DNA from: an uncultured Chloroflexia bacterium
GTDB lineage: Bacteria; Chloroflexota; Limnocylindria; QHBO01
NCBI GenBank assembly: GCA_963844415.1
Contig: CAWJOA010000006.1
Span: 354,855 to 418,854, forward strand
Direction: 5' to 3'
DNA length: 64,000 nucleotides
Within the stretch, counting starts at the first letter, position 1; each line of letters opens with the position of its first letter. Below the pieces are notes generated by a model. It saw only the letters and a list, made by a program, of their open reading frames with translations. It was not told where the DNA came from and searched no databases. This document shows, piece by piece, positions 1 to 40,158 of this stretch. A program made the translations under genes and the position numbers.

Positions 1-1292
1 CCGAGCACACGATGGCCCTCCTGCTCGCCATCGTGCGCCATCTCCCGGAGGCGGACGCATCGGTCAAGTCCGGCGAGTGGGAACGTTCGCGATTCACCGG
101 CACCGAGCTGCGGGGCAAGACCCTCGGGATCGTGGGGCTCGGGAAGATCGGAAAGGCGGTCGCGCGCCGCGCCGTCGGCTTCGAGATGCGGGTCCTTGCG
201 AGCGACCCATACCTGACCGAGGAGCAGGCCGCCGAAGCCGGCGCCCGCCTCGTCGGCCTTGCCGAGCTCCTGCATCGGTCGGACGTCATCAGTGTCCACA
301 CCCCGCTGACAGCACGGACCCGTGGACTGATCGGCGGGCCCCAACTCGAGGCCACAAAGGGAGGGGCGTTCGTCCTCAACGTGGCACGCGGCGGGATCGT
401 GGACGAGGCCGCGCTTGCGGCTGGGCTCCATTCCGGCCATCTCGCCGGTGCCGCGGTGGACGTCTACTCCGCCGAGCCGATCGGCGCGGACAACCCACTG
501 CGCGGTGCGCCGAACGTCCTGCTCACGCCACATCTCGGTGCATCGACGACGGAGGCGCAGGATCGGGTCGGCCTCGAGATGGCGGAGCAGGTGGTCATGG
601 CCCTCGCCGGAGTCACCCCCGCATACGCGGTGAATGCGCCAGCGGTATCACCGGAGACCGCGCCGCGCCTGCGCCCCTACGTGGAGCTCGGCCGCCGGCT
701 CGCGATCCTCGCGCGCCAGCTCGCCCCTGGCGGCTTCGATGCGCTGTCCCTGACCTATGCCGGCGAGATCGCGGGCGGCGAATGCGCTCCGATCCGCACT
801 GCTGCCCTCGCCGGCCTGCTCGAGGCCGTCACCGACCAGCGGGTGAACGCGGTGAATGCCGACCTGGTGGCCCGAGAACGCGGCCTCACGGTCCGCGAGG
901 AGCGAACCGCGTCATCGGATCCGTGGGCGTCGTTGGTCGAGCTCTCGATCGGCCCCGTGGGGGGAGACCCGGTGTTGACCCTGGCCGGATCGACCGCGCA
1001 TGGCCGCCCTCACCTGGCGGGGCTCGGCGGCTTCGCGATCGACGCGGAGCTCGTCGGCCTGATGCTCGTGACGCGCCACCACGATCGGCCGGGGATCGTC
1101 GGAGCGGTGGGCACCACCCTCGCGGAGGCCGGCATCAACATCAGCTCGCTGGAGCTTTCGCGCCTCTCCGAGCACGGCGAAGCGATGATGTTCGTCTCCG
1201 TCGACGACCCGATCGATGGAACGCTGCTCGAGCGAATCCGAGCCACCGACGGGATCATCGAGGCCACCGTCGTCGAGCTGCCGCTGCGCTAG
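1..1292 (+). CDS. serA: D-3-phosphoglycerate dehydrogenase, 5'-truncated by the window edge (NAD-binding, substrate-binding and C-terminal ACT regions present)
   Basis: ORF 12..1292 reads GKTLGIVGLGKIGKAVARRA ... LLTPHLGASTTEAQ ... ACT-like tail; typical SerA/2-hydroxyacid dehydrogenase NAD-binding fingerprint. Confidence 0.85.
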   Translation, partial: EHTMALLLAIVRHLPEADASVKSGEWERSRFTGTELRGKTLGIVGLGKIGKAVARRAVGFEMRVLASDPYLTEEQAAEAGARLVGLAELLHRSDVISVHTPLTARTRGLIGGPQLEATKGGAFVLNVARGGIVDEAALAAGLHSGHLAGAAVDVYSAEPIGADNPLRGAPNVLLTPHLGASTTEAQDRVGLEMAEQVVMALAGVTPAYAVNAPAVSPETAPRLRPYVELGRRLAILARQLAPGGFDALSLTYAGEIAGGECAPIRTAALAGLLEAVTDQRVNAVNADLVARERGLTVREERTASSDPWASLVELSIGPVGGDPVLTLAGSTAHGRPHLAGLGGFAIDAELVGLMLVTRHHDRPGIVGAVGTTLAEAGINISSLELSRLSEHGEAMMFVSVDDPIDGTLLERIRATDGIIEATVVELPLR

Positions 1293-1327
1293 CTCGACGA
1301 CCGGACACGCGGCCTATCATCGGTTGC

Positions 1328-2281
1328 ATGCCAAAGCCATTCGCCAGCTCGGCGGACCTGGCCGAGAAGGAGGCCACCCTCGAGCAGCTCGCCGACGGCG
1401 TCTTCGCCTACACCGCGCAGGGCGACCCGAACGTCGGATGCATCGTCGGGACCGATGCGATCCTCGCCATCGAGGCGCGCGCCACGCCGGTCATGGCCCG
1501 CCGCTGGATCGACGTCATCCGCGCCGAGGTCAGCTCGCTCCCGTTCGGCGACCTTGTCCTCACGCACTACCACGCGGTCCGCACGCTCGGCGCGAGCGCC
1601 TTTGACGCCCGCCGCATCGTGGCCCATGCCAGGACGAAGGCACTGATCGACGAGCGCGGAGAGCAGGACTGGGCCAGCGAGCAGGGTCGGATGCCGCGCC
1701 TCTTCCTCGGCGCCGAGTCGATCCCGGGGCTCACCGAACCGACGGTCACGTTCGACAATGCCCTTGTGCTCGACCTCGGCAACCGGACCGTCGAGCTGCG
1801 CCACCTCGGCCGCGGCCACACCTCGGGCGACCTTGTCGTGTGGCTCCCCGACGAGCGCATCTGCTTCGCCGGCGACCTCGTCGAGGCACAGGCCGCGCCG
1901 TACATGGGTGACGCGCACGTCGCCGACTGGTCGACGACCACGCTGGACGAGGTCGCGGCGCTGCGGCCCGCTCAGCTCGTCGGCGGGCGTGGCCCGGTCG
2001 TCCGCGACCAGGAGGTCGCCACCGCGATCGAGGACACCCGCGCCTTCCTGCGGACGACGCTCGATGGCACCCGCGCCGTCAAGGACGGCGGCGGCGGCCT
2101 CAGGGATGCCTTCGCGTCAGTGCACGCGAAGCTCGCGCCGCGCTACGCGGGCTTCCCGATCTTCGAGCACTGCATGCCGTTCAACGTCCAGCGCACGTGG
2201 GACGAGCTGGACGGCATCGACCACCCGCGCATCTGGACGGCGGAGCGCGACCGCGAGGTGTGGGCCGCGCTCCAGGACTAG
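1328..2281 (+). CDS. MBL-fold metallo-hydrolase
   Basis: In-frame part of ORF 77..2281 starting at ATG 1328 (MPKPFASS...). Motifs VLTHYHAVRT and LRHLGRGHTSGDLVVWLP...FAGDLV are typical of the metallo-beta-lactamase fold. Confidence 0.65.
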   Translation: MPKPFASSADLAEKEATLEQLADGVFAYTAQGDPNVGCIVGTDAILAIEARATPVMARRWIDVIRAEVSSLPFGDLVLTHYHAVRTLGASAFDARRIVAHARTKALIDERGEQDWASEQGRMPRLFLGAESIPGLTEPTVTFDNALVLDLGNRTVELRHLGRGHTSGDLVVWLPDERICFAGDLVEAQAAPYMGDAHVADWSTTTLDEVAALRPAQLVGGRGPVVRDQEVATAIEDTRAFLRTTLDGTRAVKDGGGGLRDAFASVHAKLAPRYAGFPIFEHCMPFNVQRTWDELDGIDHPRIWTAERDREVWAALQD

Positions 2282-2855: not shown

Positions 2856-2924
2856 CTCTGGCTCATCCTCGTCATGCACGAAAGCAGATCGCCACTCTCT
2901 ACGTGGGCGGTTACCGCCGTGCCG

Positions 2925-4400
2925 ATGCCTATCATGCACGCCGTGTCGGACGTGGCGATCGTCGGAGCCGGCGCGGTCGGCCTGACCCTGGCCGGGCGCC
3001 TGGCCCAGCACGGCGTCGGCGTCGACCTCTTCGAGGCGGAGGCTGAGCGCGAGCGGATCGGCTCGAAGGCGATCTGCATGCAGCGCGAGACCCTCGAGAT
3101 CTGGGCTCGGCTCGGCGTTGGGCAGGCCGTCGCGGACGGCGGCATCCAGTGGCGCGTCGGGCGGACGTATTTCCGCGGCCGCCGGCTGTTCGAGACCCAC
3201 CTGCCCGGCGACGGCGAGCACTTCCCGCCGTTCGTCAACATCAGCCAGTCCGAGGTCGAGGAGCTGCTCGAGGCCCGCGCCCTTGAGCTCGGCGTGCGCA
3301 TCCACCGCGGGCACACGTTCGCCGGGCTGACCCAGGACCCCGACGGTGTGGTCGCCACCTTCGACACCGATGCCGGCGCCGTGACGCATCGGTCCAGCTT
3401 CCTCGTCGGCAGCGATGGCGCCCACTCGTCCGTGCGCCACGCGCTCGGCATCGGCTTCGACGGCTACAGCTTCGACGACCGCTTCCTCATCGCCGATGTC
3501 CGGGCCGAGCTGCCGTTCACGAACGAGCGCCACTTCCACTTCGACCCGCCCTGGAACCCCGGTCGCCAGGTCCTCATCCATCCCCAGCCCGACGGCGTGT
3601 GGCGGATCGACTGGCAGGTCCCGCCGGAGACCGATGCGGACCACGAGCGCACGACCGGTGGCCTCGAGCGGCGCATCCGCGCCGTCATCGGTCCCGACGC
3701 CGCCTACGAGCTCGTCTGGCTGACGGCCTATCGGTTCAGCCAGCGCCTGGCCGATGCGTTCCGTGCCGGCCGCTGCTTCCTCGCCGGCGACGCCGCCCAC
3801 GTGATGTCGCCGTTCGGCGCACGCGGCCTCAACTCCGGCGTCGCCGATGCCGAGAACCTCGCCTGGAAGCTCGCCTGGGTCCTGCGCGGCGAGGCCTCGC
3901 CGTCGCTGCTCGACTCGTACGGGGCCGAGCGCCGGCCGGTCGCGGAGGAGAACCTTCGCGTCACGAGCGAAACGATGCACTTCATGGCGCCGCATGGCCC
4001 GCTGCGCCGCGCCTGGAGGGATCTCGTGCTGCGCATGGCGCCACACAGCGACTGGTTCCGGCGCCGCGTCAACTCTGGCCGTTTGGCGGAGCCGGCGACG
4101 TATGCGGTCGCGGGTGCCCGGCCCTCCGACGCCGTGCGACTCGGATCGGTGGCGCCGGATGTGCCGCTGCCCGGGGGCGGGCGCCTGCGGGATCGACTGG
4201 GGCGCGGGTTCGTGGCGATCGTGCCGAGCGCGGTTGGGGCCCGCGAGCGCGTCGAGGTCGTGGAGGTCGGCTCGGCGACGATCTACGGGCCGGATCGAGC
4301 CTGGCTCGTGCGGCCCGATGGGCATCTGACGGCCAGCGCGTCGTTGGGCGAGGCGAAGACCGGGGCCCTCGAGGCGCTGGTCGCCTCGTCCGTCCGCTAG
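2925..4400 (+). CDS. FAD-dependent aromatic-ring hydroxylase (PheA/TfdB/MhpA-type flavoprotein monooxygenase)
   Basis: C-terminal 492 aa of ORF 1758..4400: MPIMHAVSDVAIVGAGAVGLTLAGRL (dinucleotide-binding fold), FLAGDAAHVMSPFGARGLNSGVADAENLAWKL (conserved GD/FAD-binding motif), C-terminal thioredoxin-like tail typical of the family. Confidence 0.75.
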   Translation: MPIMHAVSDVAIVGAGAVGLTLAGRLAQHGVGVDLFEAEAERERIGSKAICMQRETLEIWARLGVGQAVADGGIQWRVGRTYFRGRRLFETHLPGDGEHFPPFVNISQSEVEELLEARALELGVRIHRGHTFAGLTQDPDGVVATFDTDAGAVTHRSSFLVGSDGAHSSVRHALGIGFDGYSFDDRFLIADVRAELPFTNERHFHFDPPWNPGRQVLIHPQPDGVWRIDWQVPPETDADHERTTGGLERRIRAVIGPDAAYELVWLTAYRFSQRLADAFRAGRCFLAGDAAHVMSPFGARGLNSGVADAENLAWKLAWVLRGEASPSLLDSYGAERRPVAEENLRVTSETMHFMAPHGPLRRAWRDLVLRMAPHSDWFRRRVNSGRLAEPATYAVAGARPSDAVRLGSVAPDVPLPGGGRLRDRLGRGFVAIVPSAVGARERVEVVEVGSATIYGPDRAWLVRPDGHLTASASLGEAKTGALEALVASSVR

Positions 4401-5002
4401 CGGCGCCAGCCGGCGGTCGGCCGCTCCACGCGGGCGGGCTCCCGGGCGGGCGGCACAAGGCCGAACGCAAACGCCACCAGCCCCAGGCCGATGAGCAGCG
4501 GCGCGAGCCAGGCGAACGAGATCGGTGCCTCCAGCGCGGTGTTCGGCTGCCCGCTCTCGTGCGTGGACGGCGCATGGGTGGCGGCGGCCGTCGTGCGCTG
4601 CCGCCGCTCGATCGGTCTCGTTCGCGGTCGAGCCGCCCGCCGCGGGCGCTGCAGTGGACGCTGCTTCGACGACGATCGTGGCCTGCATGTCCGGGTGGTA
4701 CTCGCACAGGTAGGCGTACGTGCCCGGCTCGGTGAACGTGAACGAGAAGCCCACGCCCTCGTCGAGGTTGCCCGAGTCGAAGGCGCCATCGCTCGCGGTG
4801 ACCGTGTGCGGCCGGTCGTCGGCGTTCCTCCACGTCACGGTGTCGCCGACGGGATCGTCAGCGTGGCCGGCGAGAACGTCGAGTCGGTGATCTGAACCTC
4901 GTGCTCGGCACCCCGGACGGGGGCCGGTGCCTCGACGGCAAGGGTGGACGCGACGACGGCGGTGAAGGCGAGTGCCACGGTGATGCGACGAACGGCGGGC
5001 AT
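4397..5002 (-). pseudogene. membrane-anchored type-1 copper cupredoxin (amicyanin/plastocyanin-like), reading frame broken by two compensating frameshifts (about 4852 and about 4590)
   Basis: Signal peptide MPAVRRITVALAFTAVVASTLAVEAPAPVRGAEHEVQITDSTFSPATLTIP is in one frame (ATG at 5002) and stops at TGA 4837. The core PVGDTVTWRNADDRPHTVTASDGAFDSGNL...FTFTEPGTYAYLCEYHPDM is in the 2292..5123 frame. The C-terminal TM anchor ISFAWLAPLLIGLGLVAFAFGLV...WRR* is back in the first frame (ORF 4397..4789). It aligns residue-by-residue with the intact paralog at 5290..5796. Confidence 0.55.
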
Positions 5003-5125
5003 GGGAACTCCAAATGCGATGTGCTTGCTCCCGGTATCGAGCCGCGCGAACCTCGAAAGGTTTCATCCGCGCCATCGAGGCGCTGGTCGCAGCTTCGGTC
5101 AGTTGGCTAGCCGTGAGGCCCAACC

Positions 5126-5265
5126 GCTCAGCGACTGTTATCGCGAACGAGCGGCTTCAGCAGGCCCAAAACCGGCCCTCGGTTCGTGGTTTGAGCCGCC
5201 CAGCGGGTGGAACCGTGAGCGAACCAGGCGCCGGCGGGCCCCGTTCGCGTTAACAGTCGCTCAGC
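5126..5265. repeat. about 140-bp element bounded by 24-bp imperfect inverted repeats (22/24 match), lower GC than the surroundings, between the two cupredoxin paralogs
   Basis: IR-L gctcagcgactgttatcgcgaacg (5126-5149) and IR-R cgttcgcgttaacagtcgctcagc (5242-5265). IR-R also contains the 17-bp palindrome cagtcgctcagcgactg. Confidence 0.5.
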
Positions 5266-5289
5266 GACTGACGCCGGAAGCCGCGCCCG

Positions 5290-5796
5290 TTACTCCCGCG
5301 GACGTCTCGCGATCACCAGGAGCCCGGCGCCGCCCAGCAGCAGGAGCCCGGTCGCGACGAGGGCGCTGGTCTGCCACCCGGCCGGCATCGCGACGTTGGG
5401 GATCGGCCCGCCACCGCCCGCGGGAGTTGCCGCCGGCGCCGCCGCTACCACGACGATCTGCCCGGTCATGTCGGGGTGCGGCGTGCACAGGTACGTGTAC
5501 GTGCCCGGCGTCGTAAACGTGAAGCTGAACGACGCGCCCTGCGCCAGGTCGCCGGAGTCGAACGCGCCGGCCGTGCTCGTCGCGGTGTGCGCGACCGCGT
5601 CCTCATTCGTCCACGTCACGGTGTCGCCGGCGGTGATCGTGAGCATCGGCGGGGAGAAGGCGAAGTCGGCGATCGTCACCGCGTGCGTTGCCGCCCGCGC
5701 CATCTCGATCGACCCGAGCACGAACAGGATCAATGCCGCCAGCAACAGGGCCAGCGCGCCGCGCCGGGCAGTGGATGCGGCCATCGGTCGGGTCAC
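5290..5796 (-). CDS. membrane-anchored type-1 copper cupredoxin (amicyanin-like, ligands H...C-x2-H-x2-M) with signal peptide and C-terminal TM anchor
   Basis: ORF 5290..5796: signal peptide, TAGDTVTWTNEDAVAHTATS...GTYTYLCTPHPDMTGQIVV, Ala/Pro/Gly linker, then C-terminal helix LVATGLLLLGGAGLLVIARRPRE. Confidence 0.8.
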   Translation of the reverse strand: MTRPMAASTARRGALALLLAALILFVLGSIEMARAATHAVTIADFAFSPPMLTITAGDTVTWTNEDAVAHTATSTAGAFDSGDLAQGASFSFTFTTPGTYTYLCTPHPDMTGQIVVVAAAPAATPAGGGGPIPNVAMPAGWQTSALVATGLLLLGGAGLLVIARRPRE

Positions 5797-5972
5797 CTCG
5801 CTCGGGACGGGATGTGGATAACTCGGTCAGATGCTAGCCAACTCGTGGACAACGGGGGTTGTCTTCGCGCGCACCCATCGGCGATCCTCTTCACGTCCCG
5901 AAGGGGCAGCTGGCCGATCCGAGATCACCTCAACGATCGCCGCGGTTCCTTCGGGACACTTCGTTGCCCGGC

Positions 5973-7130
5973 TCAGAACGCCCACTGGCCGGCACCGAAC
6001 CGCCACGCGAAGTACGCCATCGCCATCGCCGATCCCGTCGCCAGCACCCAGCCGGCCACACGCCAGCGCTCGGCGATGATCGCTCCCCAGACCATGATCC
6101 CGAACAGCGCGAGGCTGTAGCGCGGCACGCTGAGCACGAACCCGGTGCTCACGCTGAGGAGCCAGTTCCCGGCCATCCACACCGCCCAGGTCGGTCGCAG
6201 CCAGATCGCGGTCGCCACCGTCGCCACCAGCCCGATCCCGATGAACAGCAGCTCCATCCCGCCGTACATGAAGGCGGAGTCCGGACTGGGGTCGCCGAAC
6301 CAGGCCAGCACGCCGCCAATTCCCTCCCACGGCCACGTCAGCTCCTTGTCCCAGTGGCCGCGCTGGATGTCGCTGAACGCCATCAGGTCGCCGTACACGA
6401 CCTGGTTGACCGCCAGGTAGATCCCGAAGCCGATGCCGACGCCGGCGATCGCCAGCCACTCGACCCGCAGCCGCCGGCCAGGGTCCACGCGCCACTGGAG
6501 CCATGCCTCCACCGCCAGGGCCGGGGCGAGGATCAGCCCGTTCACGCGCGTGAGGGCCGCCAGGAGGGCAAGGAGGCCGGCCAGCCACCATCGGTTCGTC
6601 CGAGCCAGCCACAGCGAGCCGAAGGCGAGCGCCAGGAAGAGGCTCTCGGTGTAGCCGATGTGCAGGAAGTACGCGGTCGGAAAGACGAGCAGCAGCCCGG
6701 CCGACCAGAGGCCGATGCGGTGCCCGAGGTCCACCTTCACGAGCCGATACAGGACGGGTGCCACGAACAGCGATGCGACCGTCGCGACGACGAAGGCGGA
6801 GACGACCGGGTCCCGGACCGCCGCATTGACCGCCGCCACCAGCCACGGGAACAGCGGGAAGAAGACGATGTACAGGTCGAGCTCGCCGGGGTAGACCTGC
6901 TGGTAGCCGGGCGCGCTCAGGTTGCCCGGGTCGTCGGCCATGTAGCCGAACACGGCGATGTCGGTGTAGTGCGGTGCGTCCCATCGGTCCCACGGTTCGA
7001 GCAGCCCGCCGGGCGCGCCACCGGTCGCCACCCACAGCGCCACGTAGCCGATCGCCAGGACGCCGACCTTCGTGAGGAGCGTCCAGGCCAGCAGCTGCGC
7101 ATCGGTCCGGTCGAGGAATCGCGACAACAT
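5973..7130 (-). CDS. polytopic membrane glycosyltransferase-like protein (PMT_2 / PIG-V-type mannosyltransferase family candidate)
   Basis: ORF 5973..7130, about 10 predicted TM helices; Trp/aromatic-rich loops such as DIQRGHWDKELTWPWEGIGG resemble lipid-linked mannosyltransferases. Family assignment is by general architecture only. Confidence 0.4.
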   Translation of the reverse strand: MLSRFLDRTDAQLLAWTLLTKVGVLAIGYVALWVATGGAPGGLLEPWDRWDAPHYTDIAVFGYMADDPGNLSAPGYQQVYPGELDLYIVFFPLFPWLVAAVNAAVRDPVVSAFVVATVASLFVAPVLYRLVKVDLGHRIGLWSAGLLLVFPTAYFLHIGYTESLFLALAFGSLWLARTNRWWLAGLLALLAALTRVNGLILAPALAVEAWLQWRVDPGRRLRVEWLAIAGVGIGFGIYLAVNQVVYGDLMAFSDIQRGHWDKELTWPWEGIGGVLAWFGDPSPDSAFMYGGMELLFIGIGLVATVATAIWLRPTWAVWMAGNWLLSVSTGFVLSVPRYSLALFGIMVWGAIIAERWRVAGWVLATGSAMAMAYFAWRFGAGQWAF

Positions 7131-7198: not shown

Positions 7199-7275
<77 letters not shown>

Positions 7276-10637: not shown

Positions 10638-11523
10638 ATGCCCGAGCACCTCACCCTGCGCGACGTCCCCGGCCTGCGGGTCGGCCACTGGACCGATGCG
10701 ATCGCGCTGACCGGCTGCACGGTCGTCCTGGCGCCGGATGACGGGGCCGTCGCGGGCGTCGACGTGCGCGGCTCGGCGCCGGGCACCCGCGAGACCGATC
10801 TCCTGCGCCCCACCGCGCTGGTCGAACGCATCAACGCCATCTGCCTCGCCGGCGGCTCCGCCTTCGGGCTGGCCGCCGCCGATGGCGTCATGCGCCGGCT
10901 TGCGGAGCGGGGGATCGGGTTCGCGACCGGCGTGCGCCCGGTACCGATCGTCCCCTCGGCGATCCTCTTCGACCTCGGCGTGGGCGACCCGCTCGCGTTC
11001 CCCGATGCCGATGCCGGCCACGCCGCCACCCTTGCCGCGGAGGCCAACGACGGTCAGCTCGAGGGTCGCATCGGTGCCGGAACGGGCGCCACCGTTGCCA
11101 AGCTGGGCGGGCCGACAGGGCGCTCGGCCCGGCGGCATCGGCAGCGCGGCCCGTCGCCTCCCCGATGGCTCCACCGTCGGTGCGCTCGTTGCCACCAACG
11201 CACTGGGAAACGTGCACGCCCGCGATGGGCGGCCGCTGGCGGTTGCCACGGGCGCCGCCGAACCGCCGGTCGGCAACACGACGCTCGTCGTGATCGGGAC
11301 CGATGCGAACCTCGACCGCGCCCAGTGCCGCAAGATCGCCGAGCTCGGCCACGACGCGCTGGCGATCGGCATTCGCCCGACCCACACGCCCTTCGACGGC
11401 GACGTCGTCTTCACGATGAGCACCGGCGACGGCTCGCGGCTCTCCCTCGAGGCGCTCACGGCACTCGGGCTCGCGGCCGTCGACGCGGTGGGCGAGGCGA
11501 TCGAGCGCAGCGTCGCCGGCTAG
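10638..11523 (+). pseudogene. DmpA/S58 (P1 family) L-aminopeptidase/D-esterase, frameshifted near 11128-11135
   Basis: N-terminal half is in ORF 10638.. (LRVGHWTD...TGCTVVL...GVDVRGSAPGTRETDLL). The C-terminal half GGIGSAARRLPDGSTVGALVATNALG...LVVIGTDANLDRAQCRKIA...FTMSTG is in the +1 frame (ORF 10738..11523). The switch lies in gcccggcggcatc. Confidence 0.6.
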
Positions 11524-17433: not shown

Positions 17434-17957
17434 TACTACTTCGACAGCCGGTGTCAAGACCGATGCCCTACGATCGGCCCGTGGCAGCCACCTCACCCCT
17501 CGCGGCAGCCCTCGAGCGCGTCGGTGATCGATGGAGCCTGCTGCTCATCGAGGCCCTCCTCGAAGGCCCACGGCGCTTCGGCGAGCTCTCGGAAGCTGTG
17601 TCCGGCATCGCGCCGAATATCCTGGCCGACCGCCTGCGCCGCCTGGAGGGGGAGCGGATCGTCCGCGCGACGCCGTACTCGGAGCGCCCGCCACGCTTCA
17701 CCTACGCGCTGACCGATGAGGGCCACGAGCTCGCCGGCGTCCTCCGCCTGCTGGCCGACTGGGGCTCTCGTGGCTCCGCCAACGCCGAACCGATGCGCCA
17801 CGCCCTGTGCGGCACGCCCGTCGAGGCCCGCCTCTGGTGCCCGACCTGCGCCCGCTCCCTCGACGAGCCCGAGACCGACGCCCTGCGGCATTCGTCTGAG
17901 TCCGGTGGCGTGCGGCTGGCGCTCGACGCGCCAGGCGCGGACCGGCTCGCGCGGTAA
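17424..17957 (+). CDS. HxlR-family winged-helix transcriptional regulator with C-terminal Cys-cluster extension
   Basis: DRWSLLLIEALLEGPRRFGELSEAVSGIAPNILADRLRRLEGERIVRATPYSERPPRFTYALTDEG is the HxlR signature; the extra C-terminal 60 aa carries C..C(19)CPTC. Confidence 0.7.
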   Translation: MRKLLLRQPVSRPMPYDRPVAATSPLAAALERVGDRWSLLLIEALLEGPRRFGELSEAVSGIAPNILADRLRRLEGERIVRATPYSERPPRFTYALTDEGHELAGVLRLLADWGSRGSANAEPMRHALCGTPVEARLWCPTCARSLDEPETDALRHSSESGGVRLALDAPGADRLAR

Positions 17958-18099
17958 TGCGGGCCTATGAGCCGGGCCAGGCCCGAGCCTCCATGAGGGG
18001 CACGCCGGCCAGGACGAGGCCGTCGGAGGTGCACCGAGCAGGGTCGCGCTCACCGACGAGCGATCTCGCCCGGACCGGCGACGCCGAGCGGCCGGGATC

Positions 18100-19300
18100 C
18101 GAGGTTACGTGGTGTCGCCGAACGCGGTGAATGTGCGCCGGCCCGCGGCGACCAGAGCGCTGCCGACGAACGCCGCGCCCGCTGTTGATTGCGATCGCGG
18201 CTGGAAGCTCGCGCGGCGTCGGCCTCCGGAGTGTCGCTGGGTGCTCAGGGGCTTCGATCGCATCGAGCGAGACCGACCGCCGCGCGTGCGGCCGCGCAGA
18301 AGACGCAGTTCGCGCGTGTCAAGGCCCAGCAGGCCAGGGTGATCGCCCGGGCCGGCCAGCTCGACGCCACGGCCAGCGTGCTCGGCAGCGCCCAGCGAGC
18401 GCTGAACGCGGCATGATCGGGATGGACGCCGAGGAGCGTTGAAGATGGCGAGCAGCCGACGCGAGCATCGCCGGTAAAGTTCTCGATGAGAGCCGTCCTC
18501 GGGACGCGGCAACGACCGGCACGGCGAAGGCGAGAAGACCGCGTTGAGCAGCTCGACAAAAGCCTCCGTCGGCGGGTATGGCGCGGTCGCGTACGAGGGA
18601 GGTGAATCCGGAGAGATCCGCGAAGAGCACGGTCACTCGGCTCCTCGCCGCTGCTCGTCCCGACCGCCTCCGCATCGGCCTTGCTCGGTCGGCGAACTGC
18701 ATTGGCAGTACGGCCGGAAGAGCTCGACGACGATCGACGCGGCGCAGTTCGCAGAAGATCGCGGCCGCGACGGCCCGTCTCTGAGGTGGCGGCGACGGCT
18801 CCCCCGTCGTCGACATCAACGCCGGCACTGCGGGCGATCGAGCGATGCCGAGCGAACGCCGTGAAGTCTGCCGCCGGTGCGAGGTCGAGCAGCGGCGTCG
18901 CGCTCATCCAGGGCATGGACTTCGCCGTCGATCCGAACGGCGACGGCAGCACGAACGACGCCGTCGCCATCATCAAATGCCGCTCGGGTGCTCGGACAGG
19001 TCGTGGCCCCCGAACGTCGCCGGTGATCGAGAACGCGTCAGCGGTCGATACTCGACCGGCGGCGCCCCCAATGCGACCGACAGCCGAAGGCGACGGGACG
19101 CCAGCAGGGCGAGTGCCACTCGTCCCCCATGACAGGTGCCAGTCACGGCTGAAGACGACCGCCACCATGGCCTCGGCCAGGAGGACGAGGGCGACGACGA
19201 AGGCGAGCAGCAGCGGGCGGCCGCGTCGCGCCAGCAGGCGCAGGAAGTCGGCCACGCCGCGGGGAATGCGTCGAGGGCGCCGCGATCGCGGCAGGATCGC
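18100..19300 (-). pseudogene. possible decayed membrane-anchored class III nucleotidyl cyclase (only fragments recognisable, multiple frame changes)
   Basis: Minus-strand ORF 18319..18828 contains VTVLFADLSGFTSLV (cyclase F-A-D-x-x-G-F-T motif, around 18590-18636). ORF 18245..19408 contains a TM helix LLAFVVALVLLAEAMVAVVF (about 19150-19213) upstream of it. No continuous ORF joins them. Confidence 0.2.
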
Positions 19301-19498
19301 CGGCGAGGGGGAGCGAGCGGTCGACCGGGGCGCCGCACTCACCCTGAAGGCCATGAACGTCGGCGATGCCGGGGGCGTGGCCCGGGCTGATCGCCGGGCG
19401 ACGTTCACGGCGCCGATGGCGGCGATGGGCCGATCACGATCCCGGGCTTCATGTCAGCCAGGCCGACTCGAACACGCTCAAGAGCGGCTCGACGGGTG

Positions 19499-20179
19499 TC
19501 ACCATCCGCTTCGATCCTGCGGAGGGCATCCCGCTGGCGGCAGAGGGTCGGAGCGACCTCGCGCGGCCCGACTATGCCAGAACGGAGCCGGGATCCCCAG
19601 GATCGAGGCTGCGCCCCATGCCCCGATGGCCGCCAGAAGGGCGGCGCGCAGGGTTCCGGCGTGACGGAGGACGAGCTCGCCGCGCGGCCCGCCGAGCGGC
19701 AGCGCAGCGGCCGCGGCCAGGACCGCGGCGATCGTCAACCCCACTGGCGTGGCGATCACGAACCCGAGGTTCGGACCTGGCAGCAGCACGCCGGGCGTCG
19801 CGAGGGCGTGGAGCCCGAGGAATCCGGCGCTCGAGCCGAATGCGAGCGAGATCAGGAGGAGTCGAGCGTCGCGGCGGCGATGTGGTCGTGGGTAGGTAGG
19901 CGAGCGGGAGGTTGACGGTGGGGAATCCGCGCCGGAATGAGAGATCAGGAAGAGTCGAGCGTCGCGGCGGCGCATCGCGGCTTCGTTGGTCAGGTAGGCG
20001 AGCGCCACATTGATCGCCGCCACGATTAGGACCAGCCAGAAGTGGCTGGGTTGATGGCGCCACTCCAGGTCGAGCTCGGGGCGCGCGATCAGGACCGCCA
20101 GTCCGACCATCGGCAGCGCGAGGAGCGCCAGCCAGGCCAGCGGGGGGTGCGGTCGTTCCGCGGCACGGATGGTTGACAT
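19499..20179 (-). CDS. putative polytopic membrane protein carrying an in-frame tandem duplication; C-terminal 40 codons look non-coding, so possibly disrupted
   Basis: From ATG 20179 (MSTIRAAERPHPPLAWLALLALPMVGLAVLIA...); hydrophobic helices throughout; repeated peptide MRRRDARLFLIS / HRRRDARLLLIS. Confidence 0.3.
   Translation of the reverse strand: MSTIRAAERPHPPLAWLALLALPMVGLAVLIARPELDLEWRHQPSHFWLVLIVAAINVALAYLTNEAAMRRRDARLFLISHSGADSPPSTSRSPTYPRPHRRRDARLLLISLAFGSSAGFLGLHALATPGVLLPGPNLGFVIATPVGLTIAAVLAAAAALPLGGPRGELVLRHAGTLRAALLAAIGAWGAASILGIPAPFWHSRAARGRSDPLPPAGCPPQDRSGW
19848..20010. repeat. imperfect tandem duplication (period about 93-98 bp) inside the membrane-protein ORF
   Basis: gagatcaggaGgagtcgagcgtcgcggcggcg at 19848-19879 and gagatcaggaAgagtcgagcgtcgcggcggcg at 19941-19972; the downstream aggtaggcgagcg block is also repeated. 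Confidence 0.6.
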
Positions 20180-20312
20180 CGGTCGTGCGCTTCTCGGCGG
20201 TCCTCCATTGTCGCCGGGAGCGCAAACGCCAGCGTGGCTGGAGATCAGCGATCCCGTCCGCGAGGGCGTCCGCTGATCGACGGCAGAAGGAAGTCGGGGG
20301 GGGGGTACGGAC

Positions 20313-21101
20313 CTACGCAGGCTCCCAATGGAAGTCGCCGGTGAAGAGCCCATCCACGAAACCGATCTGATAGGCCAGGTAGAGGCCGAATCCGAGTGAC
20401 AGCAGTCCCGAACCGATCATCAGCCACCGGTTGATCTGGGCCGATCGCGCCTTGGCGACCCAGAAGGGGAGACCGATAACCGTCGTGAGCACGGCCATGC
20501 CAATCGCGACGCCGGCGCAGAAGATGACGAGGTAGAGGAGCGCCGCGCCGGTGTCCTCGATCGTGGCGAGGACGAGGAGCGCGACGGCCGCCGATCCGGC
20601 GAGGCCGTGGACCAGCCCCACCGCGACCGGGCGAATGAGCTGGTACCAGCCGAAGGTCTCGACGATGCTCAGCGCGGCATCGGTGCCGTGCCCGTGGAGG
20701 TGGGCATGGCGGTGTCCATGCTCCTCTTCGGCGTCGTGCGCGTGGAGGTGTGCGTGCGGATGGCCATGCATCGGCGCCGGCGGCGTCAGGCGATCCGTGA
20801 GCTGGCGCAGGCCGCCGGTGAGGTTGAGGATGCCGAGGGCGATGAGCATGAGCGCCACGGCGAACTCCATCGCCAGGCCCACCGATGGGGGGATCACGAC
20901 GTTGAAGACGATGATCGCGATGCCGACGAGGACCACGGTGATCGTGTGACCCAGCCCCCACAGGACTCCGATCAGCGTCATGTGCGCGAACCGGCGGCTG
21001 CGGTTCAGGATCGTGGTCACCGCGATGACGTGGTCGGCATCGGTCGCGTGGCGCATACCGAGCAGGAAGCCGAATCCCGCCAGGGCCAGGAACTGGGTCA
21101 C
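20313..21101 (-). CDS. NicO/HoxN-type nickel/cobalt transporter (RcnA-like) with His-rich cytoplasmic loop
   Basis: ORF 20313..21137. GMRHATDADHVIAV (the NicO HxxDADH motif) and loop HGHPHAHLHAHDAEEEHGHRHAHLHGHG. Start placed at GTG 21101, preceded by GGAGA; the listed TTG at 21137 lies inside the operator palindrome. Confidence 0.8.
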   Translation of the reverse strand: MTQFLALAGFGFLLGMRHATDADHVIAVTTILNRSRRFAHMTLIGVLWGLGHTITVVLVGIAIIVFNVVIPPSVGLAMEFAVALMLIALGILNLTGGLRQLTDRLTPPAPMHGHPHAHLHAHDAEEEHGHRHAHLHGHGTDAALSIVETFGWYQLIRPVAVGLVHGLAGSAAVALLVLATIEDTGAALLYLVIFCAGVAIGMAVLTTVIGLPFWVAKARSAQINRWLMIGSGLLSLGFGLYLAYQIGFVDGLFTGDFHWEPA

Positions 21102-27285: not shown

Positions 27286-28666
27286 ATGGACCGTTGGCGC
27301 ACGATCATCGAGCCATTCCGGATCAAGAGCGTCGAGCCGATCCGGATGACGACGGTGGCCGAGCGCGAGGCTCACCTGCGTGAGGCCGGCTACAACCTCT
27401 TCAACCTCCATGCCGACGACGTCCTCATCGACCTGCTCACCGATTCGGGCACCGGCGCGATGAGCGCGGAGCAGTGGGCCGGCATCCAGCGTGGCGACGA
27501 GTCCTATGCCGGGTCGCCGTCGTGGTTCCGCTTCCTCGACGCGGTGACCGAGCTCTTCCCGTTTCGCCACGTCATCCCGACGCACCAGGGACGGGCCGCC
27601 GAGAAGATCCTCTTCCACACGGTCGCCGGGCCTGGGAAGGTCGTGCCCTCGAACACGCACTTCGACACAACGCGCGCCAACGTCGAGTTCACCGGCGCCG
27701 AGGCCGTCGACCTCGTCATCGCCGAGGGAGCGGTCACCCTCGGCGATCCATCCATTCAAGGGCAACATGGACACCGATGCGCTCGACGCCCTGATCGGAG
27801 CGCGCGGCGCCGAGAATGTCCCGGTCGTCTTCGTGACGATCACGAACAACTCCGGCGGTGGGCAACCGGTGAGCCTGGCCAACCTGCGCGCCGTGCGCGC
27901 CGTCTGTGACCGATACGGGCTGCCGCTGTTCCTCGACGCCTGCCGCTTCGCGGAGAACGCGTGGTTCATCAAGCAGCGCGAGGACGGCTACGCGGACGCA
28001 TCGGTCCCCGACATCGTGCGTGAGATGGCCTCGCTGGCCGATGGGATGACGATGTCGGGCAAGAAGGACGCCCTCGCCAACATCGGTGGCTGGCTCGCCA
28101 TGAACGATGACGCCTGGGCCGAGGCCTGCCGCAATCTGCTGATCCTGACCGAGGGCTTCCCGACCTACGGCGGCCTCGCCGGGCGTGACCTCGAGGCCAT
28201 GGCCGCCGGGCTGCGCGAGGTGGTGCAGGACGATTACCTGCGCTACCGCGTGCGTTCGACCGCCTATCTCGGCGAGGCGCTGGTCGAGGCCGGGGTGCCG
28301 TGCATCCAGCCGATCGGCGGCCACGCCGTCTATCTCGACGCCGCAGCCCTGCTGCCGCACATCCCGCCGCTCGAGTACCCGGGCCAGGCGCTGGCGTGCG
28401 CCCTCTACCGCGAGGGCGGCATCCGCGGCTGCGAGATCGGCACGGTGATGTTCGGCCGCCATCCAGATGGCTCGGAGACGCCCGCGTCGATGGAGCTCGT
28501 CCGCCTCGCCATCCCGCGCCGGGTCTACACCCAGTCCCACGTCGACTACGTCATCGAGGTCATCCGCGGGGTTGCCGAACGCGCGGGCGAGCTGCGGGGG
28601 ATGCGAATCGTCGAGCAGCCCTCGGTGCTGCGCCATTTCACCGCGCGATTCGAGCCGCTGGCGTGA
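27286..28666 (+). pseudogene. tnaA: tryptophanase / tyrosine phenol-lyase (beta-eliminating lyase, PLP-dependent), single frameshift near 27750-27765
   Basis: N-terminal part (ORF 27286..27909: MDRWRTIIEPFRIKSVEPIRMTTVAEREAHL..LLTDSGTGAMS) and the rest (ORF 27767..28666: ITNNSGGGQPVSLANL..SGKKDALANIGG..FPTYGGLAGRDLEA). Both align colinearly with E. coli TnaA from memory. The PFKGNMD junction is split between frames at ccatccattcaagg. Confidence 0.7.
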
Positions 28667-34996: not shown

Positions 34997-36913
34997 GTGG
35001 GATTGATGACCTGGGGGAGCCGCCCACGCCGCATCGGCCGATCGTACTCGCGCGGCTATGATGGGCGGCGCCCGCTCGGCATCGGCCCCAGCCGCAGCGG
35101 CCTCGAGGGAATTCCGACGTTGACCCGATTCGCCAAGCTCGCGGTTGCGGCTGCCGTCGCGACCTTCGTCCTCATCGCCGTAGGCGGCCTCGTGCGCGCC
35201 ACCGACTCGGGGCTCGGCTGCCCGGACTGGCCGCTGTGCTTCGGCGACTGGTTGCCGCCGGCCGATCTCCACGCCTGGATCGAGCACAGCCATCGGCTGA
35301 TTGCGGCCGCCTTCGTCGGCCCGCTCGTCGCGGCGGTGGGCCTCGTCACTGTCTTCAGCGACCGGCGTCGTGACCACCCCCTCCTTGCCGCCGCGGTCAT
35401 TGCCGGCGTGCTCGTCATCGTCCAGTCCGCGCTGGGCGCCGCGGTCGTGCTCGAGCAGCTCCAGGCCGAGCTCGTCACCGCCCACCTTGCGATGGCCCTC
35501 ACTGTCTTGGCGGCGGTCATCTTCATCGCCGAGCGCGCCGCGAACGGACCGATGCCGGCCGCACACGCGCGTCCCGTGCTGACCCGCCTCGTCGCCGTCA
35601 CCGCGGTCGCGCTCTTCGCCCAGATGCTGCTCGGATCGTGGGTCACCGGCCAGGGTGCCGGGCTGGCCTACGCCGACGTCCCGCTGATGGACGGCGCGTT
35701 CGTCCCGGCCATCTCCACCGACACGCAGGCGATCCACGCCGCCCACCGCGGGCTGAGCGTGGTCGTCGCGATCCTCGTGGCGTGGACCGCGGTCGCCATC
35801 CACCGCTCGACCGACGCGCCGGGCCCGAGGCGCCTCGCGATCATCCTCGCCGCGCTCGTGGTGGTGCAGATCGTGCTCGGCCTGCTGAACGTGGCGTCAC
35901 GGCTGTCCGCCCTCTTCGTCGTCCCGCACCTGGCAACCGGCGCCGCCCTGTGGGGCGCATCGGTCTGGCTGCTCCTGACGGCCCGCCGCCTGCGCCCGGC
36001 CGAGCTGCGCGTGACAGCCGCCAAGGCCGAGCCCGGACCGATGGGCACCGTGCGCTCCTACATCGCGCTCACGAAGCCGCGGATCATCGAGCTGCTGCTG
36101 GTGACGACGATCCCGACGATGGTCCTCGCGGCCGGCGGCCTGCCGTCGCCGTGGCTGATGGCCGCGGTGATCCTGGGCGGCACGCTCGCGGCCGGCGGGG
36201 CGAACGCGATCAACATGTACGTCGACCGCGATATCGACGACCTCATGCGCCGCACGCGCCACCGGCCACTGCCGCGCCACGCCGTCCAGCCGCGGGCCGC
36301 GCTCGCGTTCGGCATCGGTCTCAGCGTCGCCGCCTTCGTCTGGCTGGCGCTGACCGTGAACCTGCTGAGTGCCGTGCTCGCGCTCTCGGCGACCGCGTTC
36401 TACATCTTCGTGTACACGCTCTGGCTGAAGCGGAGCACGCCGCAGAACATCGTGATCGGCGGCGCGGCCGGGTGCGTGCCGGTGCTCGTGGCGTGGGCAT
36501 CGGTCACCGGCGAGGTCGGCCTGCCGGCGCTCGTGCTGTTCGCGATCGTCTTCTATTGGACGCCGCCGCACTTCTGGGCGCTCGCGCTGCGCTACCGCGG
36601 GGACTACGCCGCGGCGAAGGTGCCGATGCTCCCCGTCGTGCGCGGCGAGGCGGAGACCGCGCGGCAGATCGTGCTCTACACGATCGCCCTCGTGGCGGTC
36701 AGCCTCCTGCTCTTCCCGGCGGCGGGGATGGGGTGGATCTATCTCGCGGCAGCGGTCGTGCTCGGCGTGCTGTTCCTGTGGCGCGCGCTGCGGTTGCGGG
36801 CCGATGCCGCCAGCGGGCGCGCCGCGATCGGCCTCTTCCGCTACTCGATCAGCTACCTGACCCTGCTCTTCGCCGCCGTCGCCGTCGACGCGCTCGTCTA
36901 CCTGCCGGTCTGA
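34997..36913 (+). CDS. ctaA-ctaB: heme A synthase (CtaA/Cox15)-heme O synthase (protoheme IX farnesyltransferase CtaB/CyoE) fusion; exact start uncertain (GTG 34997 / TTG about 35120)
   Basis: N half: LIAVGGLVRATDSGLGCPDWPLCFGDW, conserved His (EHSHRLIA, HAAHRGL). C half: YIALTKPRIIELLLVTT...NMYVDRDIDDLMRRTRHRPLP...WTPPHFWALAL (CtaB motifs). One continuous 638-codon ORF. Confidence 0.8.
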   Translation: MGLMTWGSRPRRIGRSYSRGYDGRRPLGIGPSRSGLEGIPTLTRFAKLAVAAAVATFVLIAVGGLVRATDSGLGCPDWPLCFGDWLPPADLHAWIEHSHRLIAAAFVGPLVAAVGLVTVFSDRRRDHPLLAAAVIAGVLVIVQSALGAAVVLEQLQAELVTAHLAMALTVLAAVIFIAERAANGPMPAAHARPVLTRLVAVTAVALFAQMLLGSWVTGQGAGLAYADVPLMDGAFVPAISTDTQAIHAAHRGLSVVVAILVAWTAVAIHRSTDAPGPRRLAIILAALVVVQIVLGLLNVASRLSALFVVPHLATGAALWGASVWLLLTARRLRPAELRVTAAKAEPGPMGTVRSYIALTKPRIIELLLVTTIPTMVLAAGGLPSPWLMAAVILGGTLAAGGANAINMYVDRDIDDLMRRTRHRPLPRHAVQPRAALAFGIGLSVAAFVWLALTVNLLSAVLALSATAFYIFVYTLWLKRSTPQNIVIGGAAGCVPVLVAWASVTGEVGLPALVLFAIVFYWTPPHFWALALRYRGDYAAAKVPMLPVVRGEAETARQIVLYTIALVAVSLLLFPAAGMGWIYLAAAVVLGVLFLWRALRLRADAASGRAAIGLFRYSISYLTLLFAAVAVDALVYLPV

Positions 36914-37893
36914 CCGCGCGGGACGCGGGGCGTCCACTGCTCCTCGCCGCGGGCCGCGCGCTCGGCCGCGAGGCGCTCGTCGAGGCGGGCCGTCTTCCGC
37001 TCCTCGGTTCGCACCCAGATCCAGATGACGACGGCCATCCCGACGAGGAAGGCGATGTCCCCGGCGACCCACATGAGGACACCGCCGAGCTGCTGATCCT
37101 CGAGTGGAATCGGCCCCCACGTCCGTCCGTTTGTGACGTAGTGCGGGTAGAGGACGGTGCCCGTGCTCAGCAGCGCGACGCCGAGGAACGAGTTCTGGGG
37201 CAGCGCCAGGAAGAGGTAGAAGAGGCGGACCGGGTACGGCAGGCGCCATGGCGAGGGGTCGACGCCGGTGATCGGCCACCAGAACAGCAGCGCGGCGGCC
37301 AGGAAGGTCGCGTGCTGGACGTAGTGCAGCAGCTGGTTCTCGAGGGCCTCGTCGTAGAGGGTGCTGAAGTGCCAGCCCCAGTTCACCGCGGCGAAGAGGA
37401 CCCAGGCCACGACCGGGAACGAGATCGCCTTGACGAACGGGCTGTGCAGGACCCACAGGAGCTTGCGCCTGACCGTTGGCGTGCTCACCCGCAGCGTGAG
37501 CGTGATCGGTCCGCCGCCCAGCAGCAGCGGCGCGGCGACGAGCATCAGCAGCAGGTGCTGGACCATGTGGACGCTGAACAGGGCGCCCTCGTAGGCCTCG
37601 ATCGGTGATGCCAGGGCCACACCGATCGCGCCGAGTCCGCCCATGAAGCACCACGTCCGGGTCCGCGGGTGCCGGTTGCGCGGGTGGGCGCGGTTCACCG
37701 TCCGGACCGCCCACAGATACGCAGCGGCGGTGGCGACCAGCGGGATCACCACGAGCGGGTCGAAGCGCCAGGCGAGCAGAACCGCCGGGAAGCTCGGCGC
37801 TGCCGCCTCCGCGCCGTGCGCGACCACCGCTGCCGGCGTGACGGCGAGCAGCATCAGAGCGAGGGGGAGGGCGGTGCGACGCATCGGTTCCAT
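36898..37893 (-). CDS. ctaG: cytochrome c oxidase assembly factor CtaG (Caa3_CtaG family membrane protein)
   Basis: From ATG 37893 (MEPMRRTALPLALMLLAVTPAAVVAHG signal): 6-7 TM helices, conserved HMVQHLLLMLVAAPLLL and WWPITG regions. Confidence 0.65.
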   Translation of the reverse strand: MEPMRRTALPLALMLLAVTPAAVVAHGAEAAAPSFPAVLLAWRFDPLVVIPLVATAAAYLWAVRTVNRAHPRNRHPRTRTWCFMGGLGAIGVALASPIEAYEGALFSVHMVQHLLLMLVAAPLLLGGGPITLTLRVSTPTVRRKLLWVLHSPFVKAISFPVVAWVLFAAVNWGWHFSTLYDEALENQLLHYVQHATFLAAALLFWWPITGVDPSPWRLPYPVRLFYLFLALPQNSFLGVALLSTGTVLYPHYVTNGRTWGPIPLEDQQLGGVLMWVAGDIAFLVGMAVVIWIWVRTEERKTARLDERLAAERAARGEEQWTPRVPRGQTGR

Positions 37894-37967
37894 TGTCGCC
37901 TGACTGAGCGGGTATCGGCGAGGAACGGCCATGGAACCGCCGCGCCCGACGTGGCGTCCATGCGGCC

Positions 37968-39156: not shown

Positions 39157-40158
39157 TTGGCGCCGCTCGTGCTCGTCGTCCTGCTGGCCGGCTGCCTCCT
39201 GCCTCCCACGCCGAAGACCGACGCCGGCCAGGACGTCTTCAACCTGTACCTCATCGTGCTCGCCCTGGCGGCGATCGTCTTCGTCGGCGTCGAGGGCTTC
39301 ATCCTGTACGCGGTCTTCCGCTACCGCCGCCAGCCCGGGGACGAGGTCCTGCCCGAGCAGCTGCACGGCAACAACACGGTCGAGATCATCTGGACGATCA
39401 TCCCGACGGTCATCGTCTTCGTCCTCTTCTTCTTCAGCATGCTCACCCTCGCCGAGGTGGAGGCCAGCTCGGACGTCCAGGACGCCGAGACGGTCCAGGT
39501 GGAGGCGTTCTCGTGGGGCTGGAGGTTCCTGTACGAGAACGGCGCCGAGGCGTCCGGTACGGCGCAGGAGCCGCCCGTGCTCGCGCTGCCGGTGGACGAG
39601 CCGGTGCGCCTGGTCCTGACGTCGATCGACGTCAACCACGCCTTCTACGTCCCCGACTTCCTCATCAAGCGCGACGTCATCGACTTCGGCGAAGGACGCG
39701 GGACGAACGAGCTGACGTTCACGATCACCGAGGTCGGAACCTATGCCGGCCAATGCGCCGAGTTCTGCGGCACGGGCCACGCCGAGATGGTCTTCACCGT
39801 CGATGCCCAGGAGCGCGCCGACTATGACGCCTACGTCGAGGCCCTGGCCTCCGCCGCGCCGCCGCCGGGCGGTGACGCCGAGGACTGCGGCACGACCATC
39901 CAGCTCGCGGCGGTCGAGAGCCTCCAGTTCGACACCGATGCGATCGAGGCACCCGCCGGCGAGGCGTTCTGCATCGAGTTCACGAACAACGACACCGTCC
40001 CGCACGACGTCGGCATCGCCGAGACCGACTTCGATGGCGAGAACGTGGACCCCGGCGAGTCGATCACCTACGTCATCCCCGCCATGGATGCGGGCACGTT
40101 TACGTTCTACTGCACCATCCATCCGGCGATGGAAGGCACCCTCACCGTCAACGAGTAA
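39157..40158 (+). CDS. ctaC: cytochrome c oxidase subunit II (CuA) fused to a C-terminal type-1-copper cupredoxin domain (amicyanin-like) in place of a cytochrome c domain
   Basis: TTG 39157; lipobox LVLVVLLAGC, two TM helices, CuA site HAFYVPDF...CAEFCGTGHAEM. Then a second domain with T1Cu ligands HDVGI...YCTIHPAMEG; no CxxCH anywhere. Confidence 0.8.
   Translation: MAPLVLVVLLAGCLLPPTPKTDAGQDVFNLYLIVLALAAIVFVGVEGFILYAVFRYRRQPGDEVLPEQLHGNNTVEIIWTIIPTVIVFVLFFFSMLTLAEVEASSDVQDAETVQVEAFSWGWRFLYENGAEASGTAQEPPVLALPVDEPVRLVLTSIDVNHAFYVPDFLIKRDVIDFGEGRGTNELTFTITEVGTYAGQCAEFCGTGHAEMVFTVDAQERADYDAYVEALASAAPPPGGDAEDCGTTIQLAAVESLQFDTDAIEAPAGEAFCIEFTNNDTVPHDVGIAETDFDGENVDPGESITYVIPAMDAGTFTFYCTIHPAMEGTLTVNE

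Follow-up and report, generated by a model that had tools for sequence, protein, structure and literature searches.

Amicyanin, which has been described from Paracoccus and Methylobacterium (PDB 1AAC, 2GB2 and 1MDA), is a soluble periplasmic copper protein of approximately 105 residues that is encoded in mau operons and is dedicated to accepting electrons from methylamine dehydrogenase; its copper ligands are His53, Cys92, His95 and Met98, and its ligand loop (CTPHPFM) is of the shortest type. Within the phylum Chloroflexota, the auracyanins are azurin-like proteins that are tethered to the membrane at their N-terminus. Auracyanins A and B of Chloroflexus aurantiacus were shown to be type-1 copper paralogues with 38% identity, at least one of which is membrane-tethered, and were proposed to carry electrons from alternative complex III (ACIII) in photosynthetic and respiratory electron transport (PMC3150298). 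In caa3-type oxidases, an electron-entry domain, haem c, is fused to the C-terminus of the oxidase subunit CtaC. Here, a tandem pair of genes for membrane-anchored cupredoxins is described from a stretch of 64,000 nucleotides (nt) of an uncultured Chloroflexia bacterium (contig CAWJOA010000006.1, positions 354,855 to 418,854), which is referred to throughout as the window. The upstream gene of the pair (copy 1) is intact, and the downstream gene (copy 2) is interrupted by two single-base frame breaks of opposite sign; with a probability of roughly 0.8, these breaks represent consensus insertion or deletion (indel) errors of a long-read assembly and not gene decay, such that both genes would be intact in the organism itself.

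Both proteins appear from their sequences to be type-1 copper proteins of the amicyanin/plastocyanin type, in that each exceeds the gathering scores of the Pfam families Copper-bind (PF00127) and Cupredoxin_1 (PF13473) and each carries all four copper ligands. Copy 1 matches the two families with 51.3 bits (E = 1.6e-13) and 45.6 bits (E = 7.9e-12), respectively, and copy 2, once its reading frame is repaired, matches them with 40.2 and 53.3 bits. A Kyte-Doolittle scan identified a hydrophobic N-terminal signal segment, as well as a hydrophobic C-terminal helix, in each protein; both signal peptides carry a conserved Arg-Arg, and in both cases a cupredoxin domain of approximately 80 residues is followed by an Ala/Pro/Thr/Gly linker of 30-60 residues, a single C-terminal helix and a group of basic residues. 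Copy 1 and the repaired copy 2 are 53% identical to one another (E = 4e-33). The reading of this locus as a head-to-tail pair of paralogues, each with a signal peptide, a type-1 copper site and a C-terminal anchor, which had been offered in a preliminary description made from the DNA alone, was thus confirmed by profile matches, pairwise identity, ligand alignment and hydropathy.

The longest open reading frame (ORF) of copy 1 extends from a GTG at 5796 to position 5290 on the minus strand. The true start is probably the ATG at 5784, and the GTG is probably not used, because one relative (contig L007) displays a TGA between the two codons, and because gene calls in relatives (L007 and L003) correspond to proteins of 164-165 residues; an exact database record was found for the protein that begins at the ATG, and none for the version that begins at the GTG. 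Numbered from the ATG, the copper ligands of copy 1 are H65, C100, H103 and M106 (H69, C104, H107 and M110 when numbered from the GTG). The signal peptide reads MAASTARRGALALLLAALILFVLGSIEMARA, and the C-terminal part of the protein consists of an Ala/Pro/Gly linker, a transmembrane helix and the tail RRPRE. Its orthologues in syntenic loci are 84-98% identical. Immediately upstream of the gene, a stretch of approximately 40 nt (5785-5826) is almost 100% conserved in four relatives, a level of conservation above that of the coding sequence itself; it contains a GAGGTGA Shine-Dalgarno sequence as well as TTATCCACA, which is identical to the Escherichia coli DnaA-box consensus and is possibly a chance match, or else a promoter or operator.

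The coding sequence of copy 2 is distributed over two frames. Translation of frame 1 from its ATG yields MPAVRR...SPATLTIP and terminates after 55 codons at a TGA (4837-4835); frame 3 then encodes VGDTVTWRNADDRPHTVT...YLCEYHPDMQATIVVEA, and the resumed frame 1 encodes TTAAATHAPSTHESGQPNTALEAPISFAWLAPLLIGLGLVAFAFGLVPP...AGWRR, followed by the stop. A Viterbi segmentation of the entire window, using codon usage trained on the window's long ORFs and therefore blind to homology, independently divided the gene into segments at 4398-4611, 4612-4850 and 4851-4982, with junctions at 4850/4851 and 4611/4612. The coordinates of these and all other features are collected in the table below.

Features of the window in and around the cupredoxin pair and the oxidase genes
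Feature	Position	Strand	Description
FAD-dependent (flavin adenine dinucleotide) monooxygenase (FAD_binding_3)	2919..4400	plus	Pfam E = 2.8e-67; same arrangement in L002
Copy 2	5002..4397	minus	reads from frame 1 into frame 3 and back into frame 1
Copy 2, segment A	4852..5002	minus	frame 1: ATG, signal peptide, first beta-strand (MPAVRR...SPATLTI)
Copy 2, segment B	4612..4849	minus	frame 3: copper-binding core VGDTVTWRNADDRPH...YLCEYHPDMQATIVVEA and start of linker
Copy 2, segment C	4397..4611	minus	frame 1: TTAAATHAPSTHESGQPNTALEAPIS linker, transmembrane helix FAWLAPLLIGLGLVAFAFGLV, basic tail AGWRR, stop
Frame break 1	4850..4853	minus	1-nt deletion: GATC-CCGTC in the window, GATCGCCGTC in relatives
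Frame break 2	4597..4612	minus	net +1 in variable linker; exact base not placeable
Spacer element between the copies	5095..5285	minus	approximately 170 nt; 25-nt inverted-repeat arms at 5125-5149 and 5242-5266
Copy 1	5784..5290	minus	intact ORF, 164 residues, putative type-1 copper protein
Membrane glycosyl/mannosyltransferase-like gene	5973..7130	minus	weak PMT_2 and Mannosyl_trans2 Pfam matches
tRNA gene	7199-7272	plus	Rfam RF00005, 61.7 bits; flanked by the PMT_2-like gene and by a small conserved ORF
Peptidase_S58 (DmpA-like) gene, split	10638..11523	plus	net +1 at about 11113-11126
Tryptophanase/tyrosine phenol-lyase gene (Beta_elim_lyase), split	27286..28666	plus	one extra base at about 27730
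Caa3_CtaG-type assembly factor (CtaG-like)	36898-38055	minus	near the cta genes
CtaC with extra C-terminal cupredoxin	39157..40158	plus	Pfam COX2_TM, COX2 and Cupredoxin_1; extra domain at residues 253-331
ctaD	40173-41840	plus	follows ctaC
ctaE	41837-42460	plus	follows ctaD

When the three segments of copy 2 are joined, the resulting protein of 201 or 202 residues is colinear with intact orthologues over 100% of its length. A protein search using the joined sequence of 202 residues identified 800 relatives, the best of which are single-frame proteins of 198-218 residues that cover 100% of the query, with identities of up to 87% (E = 2e-104). Since the joined protein matches single-frame orthologues from end to end, all three frame segments derive from one ancestral gene. 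The progression from signal peptide to copper-binding core to anchor across two frames, as first described, was therefore borne out by translation, by the Viterbi segmentation and by orthologue alignment, and the segment in the second frame proved to be homologous to the paralogue.

In an alignment of 13 copy 2 sequences, the signal peptide, the copper core, the transmembrane helix and the AGWRR end were found to be invariant or nearly so, and the copper ligands (H66, C100, H103 and M106) are invariant. The same alignment displays two invariant histidines in the linker, H144 and H149 (THAPxTHE), and an invariant Q-P-[N/D]-T-A-L directly before the transmembrane helix. These linker motifs occupy residues 144-161 of copy 2, corresponding to about 4520-4575 of the window; in copy 1, a sequence of the form [IVL]-P-[N/D]-V-A-M is present at the matching place (residues 130-140, approximately). 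The combination of a pre-helix motif, a helix and a basic tail resembles a sorting signal of the LPXTG/LPNTA type, and it is possible that the proteins are covalently processed instead of being simply anchored.

The locus was also compared with related contigs. The order that is present in the window (a PMT_2-like gene, copy 1, copy 2, a convergent FAD_binding_3 monooxygenase and Lipoprotein_15) recurs in L002, L003 and L007-L010 and, with diverged copies, in L012, and hence in at least seven related contigs. The nearest genome bins carry the labels uncultured Chloroflexia or Candidatus Limnocylindria. All relatives examined (L001-L010 and L012) encode copy 2 as one uninterrupted ORF, and more than 100 database proteins display it in a single frame. 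Because the gene order and the intact copy 2 recur across related contigs, the pair consists of two old paralogues, representing a duplication that has been maintained in this Chloroflexota clade.

The positions of the two breaks were established from DNA alignments with intact orthologues. The first corresponds exactly to the site (about 4852) given in the preliminary description. A second shift was likewise confirmed to exist, although the position originally assigned to it (about 4590) was 10-20 nt away from the range that the alignments define: the stretch between CCGAT and ACGACGG measures 16 nt in the window and 15 nt in L001, L002, L003 and L007. The two shifts (-1, then +1) compensate one another, as had been stated, and the gene as it stands in the window is 606 nt in length, equal to that in L001 and L002.

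Several additional lines of evidence point to the assembly as the probable source of these breaks. Over approximately 10 kb that could be aligned to L003 (at 93% identity), all other indels within genes are multiples of three, and the remaining indels are intergenic. The Viterbi segmentation of the whole window identified exactly two further same-strand frame changes without a nearby stop codon, one in a gene for a Peptidase_S58 protein and one in a gene for a tryptophanase or tyrosine phenol-lyase. In the former, positions 3-167 of the Pfam profile are encoded in one frame and positions 157-293 in the other; a related contig of 146 kb with Flye-style naming (L002) reads through the window's break in this gene, but carries two different breaks in its own S58 gene (589-1656, minus strand), and for this reason the breaks appear to be specific to the individual assemblies. 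In the latter, profile positions 1-111 and 109-286 are found in different frames, with the extra base located in GAGGGA[G]CGG just upstream of an HPFKGN motif, and four JGI relatives (L087-L090) are single-frame at that point. In total, the window thus holds four single-base indels, which are distributed over three genes that are otherwise well conserved. For these comparisons, a list of DNA indels relative to related contigs was used in place of tblastn searches with the relatives' ORFs, because such searches were too noisy: at 90% DNA identity, non-coding frames match as well.

The pattern is that of frameshift artefacts in long-read (Nanopore) metagenome-assembled genomes (MAGs), in which isolated single-base indels split conserved genes and differ between related assemblies; it departs from them in that the window's four sites lie in short G/C runs, outside long homopolymers. 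The nearest genome bins are derived from a MAG project that used Nanopore data only, with assembly and polishing by Flye and Medaka (PMC12313526), and residual indels are a known weakness of such assemblies (PMC9262707). A more specific origin in methylation-linked Nanopore errors at GATC was considered and dropped; two of the sites touch a GATC, the S58 site has none, and the tryptophanase indel lies in the sequence given above.

Selection on copy 2 was then compared between the window and its relatives. The ratio of non-synonymous to synonymous substitution rates (dN/dS) for copy 2 is 0.28 between the window and L001 and 0.25 between the window and L003, with a value of 0.24 between L001 and L003; changes private to the window comprise 11 synonymous versus 7-10 non-synonymous substitutions, the only one of which within the copper domain is a conservative E105D. 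The ligands and all invariant residues are retained, and the window lineage gives no sign of relaxed selection.

Sequence records from outside the assembly provide a further comparison. A Logan contig of 1,295 nt (run ERR11630401) carries a copy 1 that is 100% identical to that of the window, and its next gene starts 288 nt downstream of copy 1, a point that corresponds to position 5002 of the window, and remains open past the first shift site, for at least 116 codons to the end of the contig, as read from gene coordinates and not from the DNA. A metagenome collection yielded no match to a pattern that spanned the first shift site with a gap of variable length, and it contains none of the seven possible 116-residue prefixes of the Logan copy 2 product. 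The truncated copy 2 product of 55 residues has been recorded on no contig other than the 799,782-nt source contig, which also encodes the identical CtaC, copy 1 and tryptophanase fragment.

Taken together, the presence of other split genes in the window, the absence of detectable relaxed selection, the open copy 2 frame of the Logan contig and the restriction of the truncated product to a single contig favour indel errors as the cause of both frame breaks. According to this explanation, the -1 and +1 changes would have arisen during long-read assembly of the 0.8-Mb source contig, and the same type of error would have split the window's genes for the S58 peptidase and the tryptophanase. Of the two possibilities left by the preliminary description, a decaying paralogue or paired indel errors, the choice itself was thus well drawn, and the evidence favours the latter and not the former.

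A number of observations nevertheless weigh against this conclusion, and most of them are those that would be expected if copy 2 had been inactivated very recently in this strain, as a strain-level polymorphism, through an initial indel and a second, neutral one, with copy 1 retaining the function. Two of the four indels fall within 250 nt of each other in one gene of 606 nt, for which we estimate a chance of approximately 0.06, and such clustering is the pattern that a dead gene, which collects hits freely, would show. A redundant paralogue lies next door, and copy 2 is more diverged from L003 (85% nucleotide identity) than are its flanks (93%). The Logan contig might originate from another strain that retains an intact allele, and a substitution that removes the single TGA would open its frame equally well; moreover, the indel errors are themselves inferred and not observed in reads, as is the technology with which the source contig was sequenced, for which documentation is lacking. 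Inactivation of this kind is nonetheless judged to be unlikely. Beyond the two single-base indels, copy 2 contains no stop codons and has lost neither a ligand nor any longer stretch of sequence, and relaxed selection is undetected on its branch. Given the lesions in the S58 and tryptophanase genes, the explanation would require that three of about 60 genes had recently and independently become pseudogenes. The S58 gene of the related long-read contig L002 is broken at different sites, and the truncated product occurs on no contig other than the source.

The fact that the two shifts compensate one another, such that the three segments together specify a complete and conserved protein, might also suggest that programmed frameshifting or some other form of recoding yields the full copy 2 product. 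That explanation appears to be effectively refuted by the orthologues, all of which are single-frame and none of which conserves the shifts; in addition, there is no slippery heptamer (X XXY YYZ) at ACGATCCCGTCG, the second shift is located in a variable linker, and we know of no precedent for two programmed shifts of opposite sign in one gene of 600 nt. Patterns on the source contig that resemble compensating frameshifts or decaying paralogues are best read as consensus errors, and since 64 kb of it contain four such indels, any further genes on it that look like pseudogenes need the same check.

With its frame repaired, the pair can be compared to the known cupredoxins introduced above. In the PDB, the highest-ranking match (9cck, E = 1e-18) is a cupredoxin domain at the C-terminus of a copper nitrite reductase, followed by amicyanin (E of about 1e-14, with a value of 1e-14 for copy 1), which is the closest solved small cupredoxin by sequence, and then by plastocyanins and pseudoazurins. 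As the preliminary description had suggested that an alignment to amicyanin be made, it was found that the four ligands of both copies (H...C-x2-H-x2-M) are identical to those of amicyanin, and that the ligand loops, CTPHPDM in copy 1 and CEYHPDM in copy 2, belong to the same shortest type and nearly match the amicyanin loop. The window proteins differ from soluble amicyanin in their linker, C-terminal membrane helix and basic tail, and no methylamine dehydrogenase-like (mau) gene was seen near the pair, either in the window or in the at least seven syntenic loci. Because they lack a mau context and would be membrane-tethered, the proteins appear to be amicyanin-like in sequence without being amicyanins, and the term 'amicyanin-like', under which they were originally described, holds for their sequence and loop but not in a functional sense.

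Similar to the auracyanins, the pair consists of paralogous type-1 copper proteins from the same phylum that are predicted to be membrane-tethered; unlike the auracyanins, they resemble plastocyanin and amicyanin, and their predicted anchor is C-terminal. The 51-56 PDB matches at E <= 0.01 include neither an auracyanin nor an azurin chain, all of them being amicyanins, plastocyanins, pseudoazurins or NirK-fused domains, and by this measure the window proteins would not be classed as auracyanins. The pair itself is uncharacterised, while the type of protein to which it belongs is known.

A possible role for these proteins is suggested by the oxidase genes that are encoded elsewhere in the window, in which CtaC carries an additional cupredoxin domain, with a C-x2-H-x2-M ligand loop, at its C-terminus. 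That fusion, also noted in the preliminary description, is real by its Pfam content and is common in metagenomes, and its architecture is shared by more than 120 database homologues that are annotated only as 'cytochrome c oxidase subunit II'. As in caa3-type oxidases, an electron-entry domain is thus fused to the C-terminus of CtaC, with the difference that the fused domain is a cupredoxin without a CxxCH motif in place of haem c; because the fusion mirrors the logic of the caa3 enzymes, it suggests that blue copper has taken over the part of cytochrome c in this lineage. No protein with a CxxCH motif in its true frame was found within the 64-kb window.

On this basis, a mechanism can be proposed in which each cupredoxin is exported by its N-terminal signal peptide, binds copper at a single site (His, Cys, His and Met, with a short C-x2-H-x2-M loop) and is kept at the outer side of the cytoplasmic membrane by a flexible linker and a single helix with a basic cytoplasmic tail. 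In the aerobic respiratory chain, the two membrane-tethered proteins would then shuttle single electrons, probably to the aa3-type oxidase, whose CtaC bears its own extra cupredoxin domain. A role for the pair as donors to that oxidase is plausible, and the earlier suggestion that cupredoxins replace cytochrome c as electron donors is a reasonable inference from domain content. A broader scheme, in which the last stretch of aerobic respiration in this soil Chloroflexota clade is all-copper, running from the tethered pair to the aa3 oxidase such that c-type cytochromes are unnecessary, and in which a PMT-like enzyme might glycosylate the linkers, is put forward tentatively and is less likely to be correct than not.

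Several facts temper the proposed respiratory role: a distance of 34 kb separates the pair from the cta genes, the argument is drawn from domain content only, and neither complex III nor ACIII is encoded in the 64-kb window. The first of these facts also speaks for a different role, in which the pair would serve another redox enzyme of the periplasm or take part in copper handling, for example by donating electrons to a nitrite reductase or by acting as a partner in amine or aromatic oxidation. That alternative, which is possible though somewhat doubtful, draws further on the identity of the best structural matches, a domain of copper nitrite reductase and then the partner of methylamine dehydrogenase, as well as on the invariant linker histidines of copy 2, which could bind metal. 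It is opposed by the absence of nirK, mau or any other periplasmic redox enzyme among the conserved neighbours, by the presumably cytoplasmic nature and convergent orientation of the adjacent FAD monooxygenase, and by the oxidase's own cupredoxin fusion, which demonstrates the use of blue copper at the oxidase in this lineage. Together, the conserved C-terminally anchored pair and the widespread, unremarked CtaC fusion suggest that copper proteins deliver electrons to the oxidase in a soil lineage that is abundant and uncultured. Such delivery would extend the auracyanin paradigm (PMC3150298), and would come as little surprise to specialists.

The genes that surround the pair are conserved in position. 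The FAD monooxygenase gene is convergent to copy 2 and overlaps it only at the stop codons, and it is for this reason regarded as a neighbour of copy 2 and not as part of its operon. The PMT_2-like gene is the upstream neighbour of the pair in all syntenic loci, and it is a speculative possibility that the encoded enzyme could glycosylate the Thr/Ser/Pro-rich linkers of the cupredoxins; no exact database record was found for its protein. The tRNA gene beyond it is the sole match at the Rfam gathering level in the window, the G+C content of which is 70-75% throughout.

At a greater distance from the pair, a region of approximately 2.4 kb (17884-20319) displays a poor, frame-hopping coding signal, and no long ORF within it has a Pfam match. 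Inside a putative membrane-protein ORF of this region, a sequence of 93-98 nt is imperfectly duplicated in direct orientation (19848-19915 and 19941-20013); the region as a whole could represent additional damage from assembly, a gene in decay or DNA of foreign origin.

The spacer that separates the two cupredoxin genes is occupied by an element that is predicted to form a long hairpin (-101 kcal/mol, z = -4.3). An Rfam search assigned it to no family, and no second copy was found within the 64-kb window. A homologous element occupies the same spacer in L002, but is located downstream of copy 2 in L001, L003 and L004; because its location differs in this way among relatives, the element looks mobile or repeat-like.

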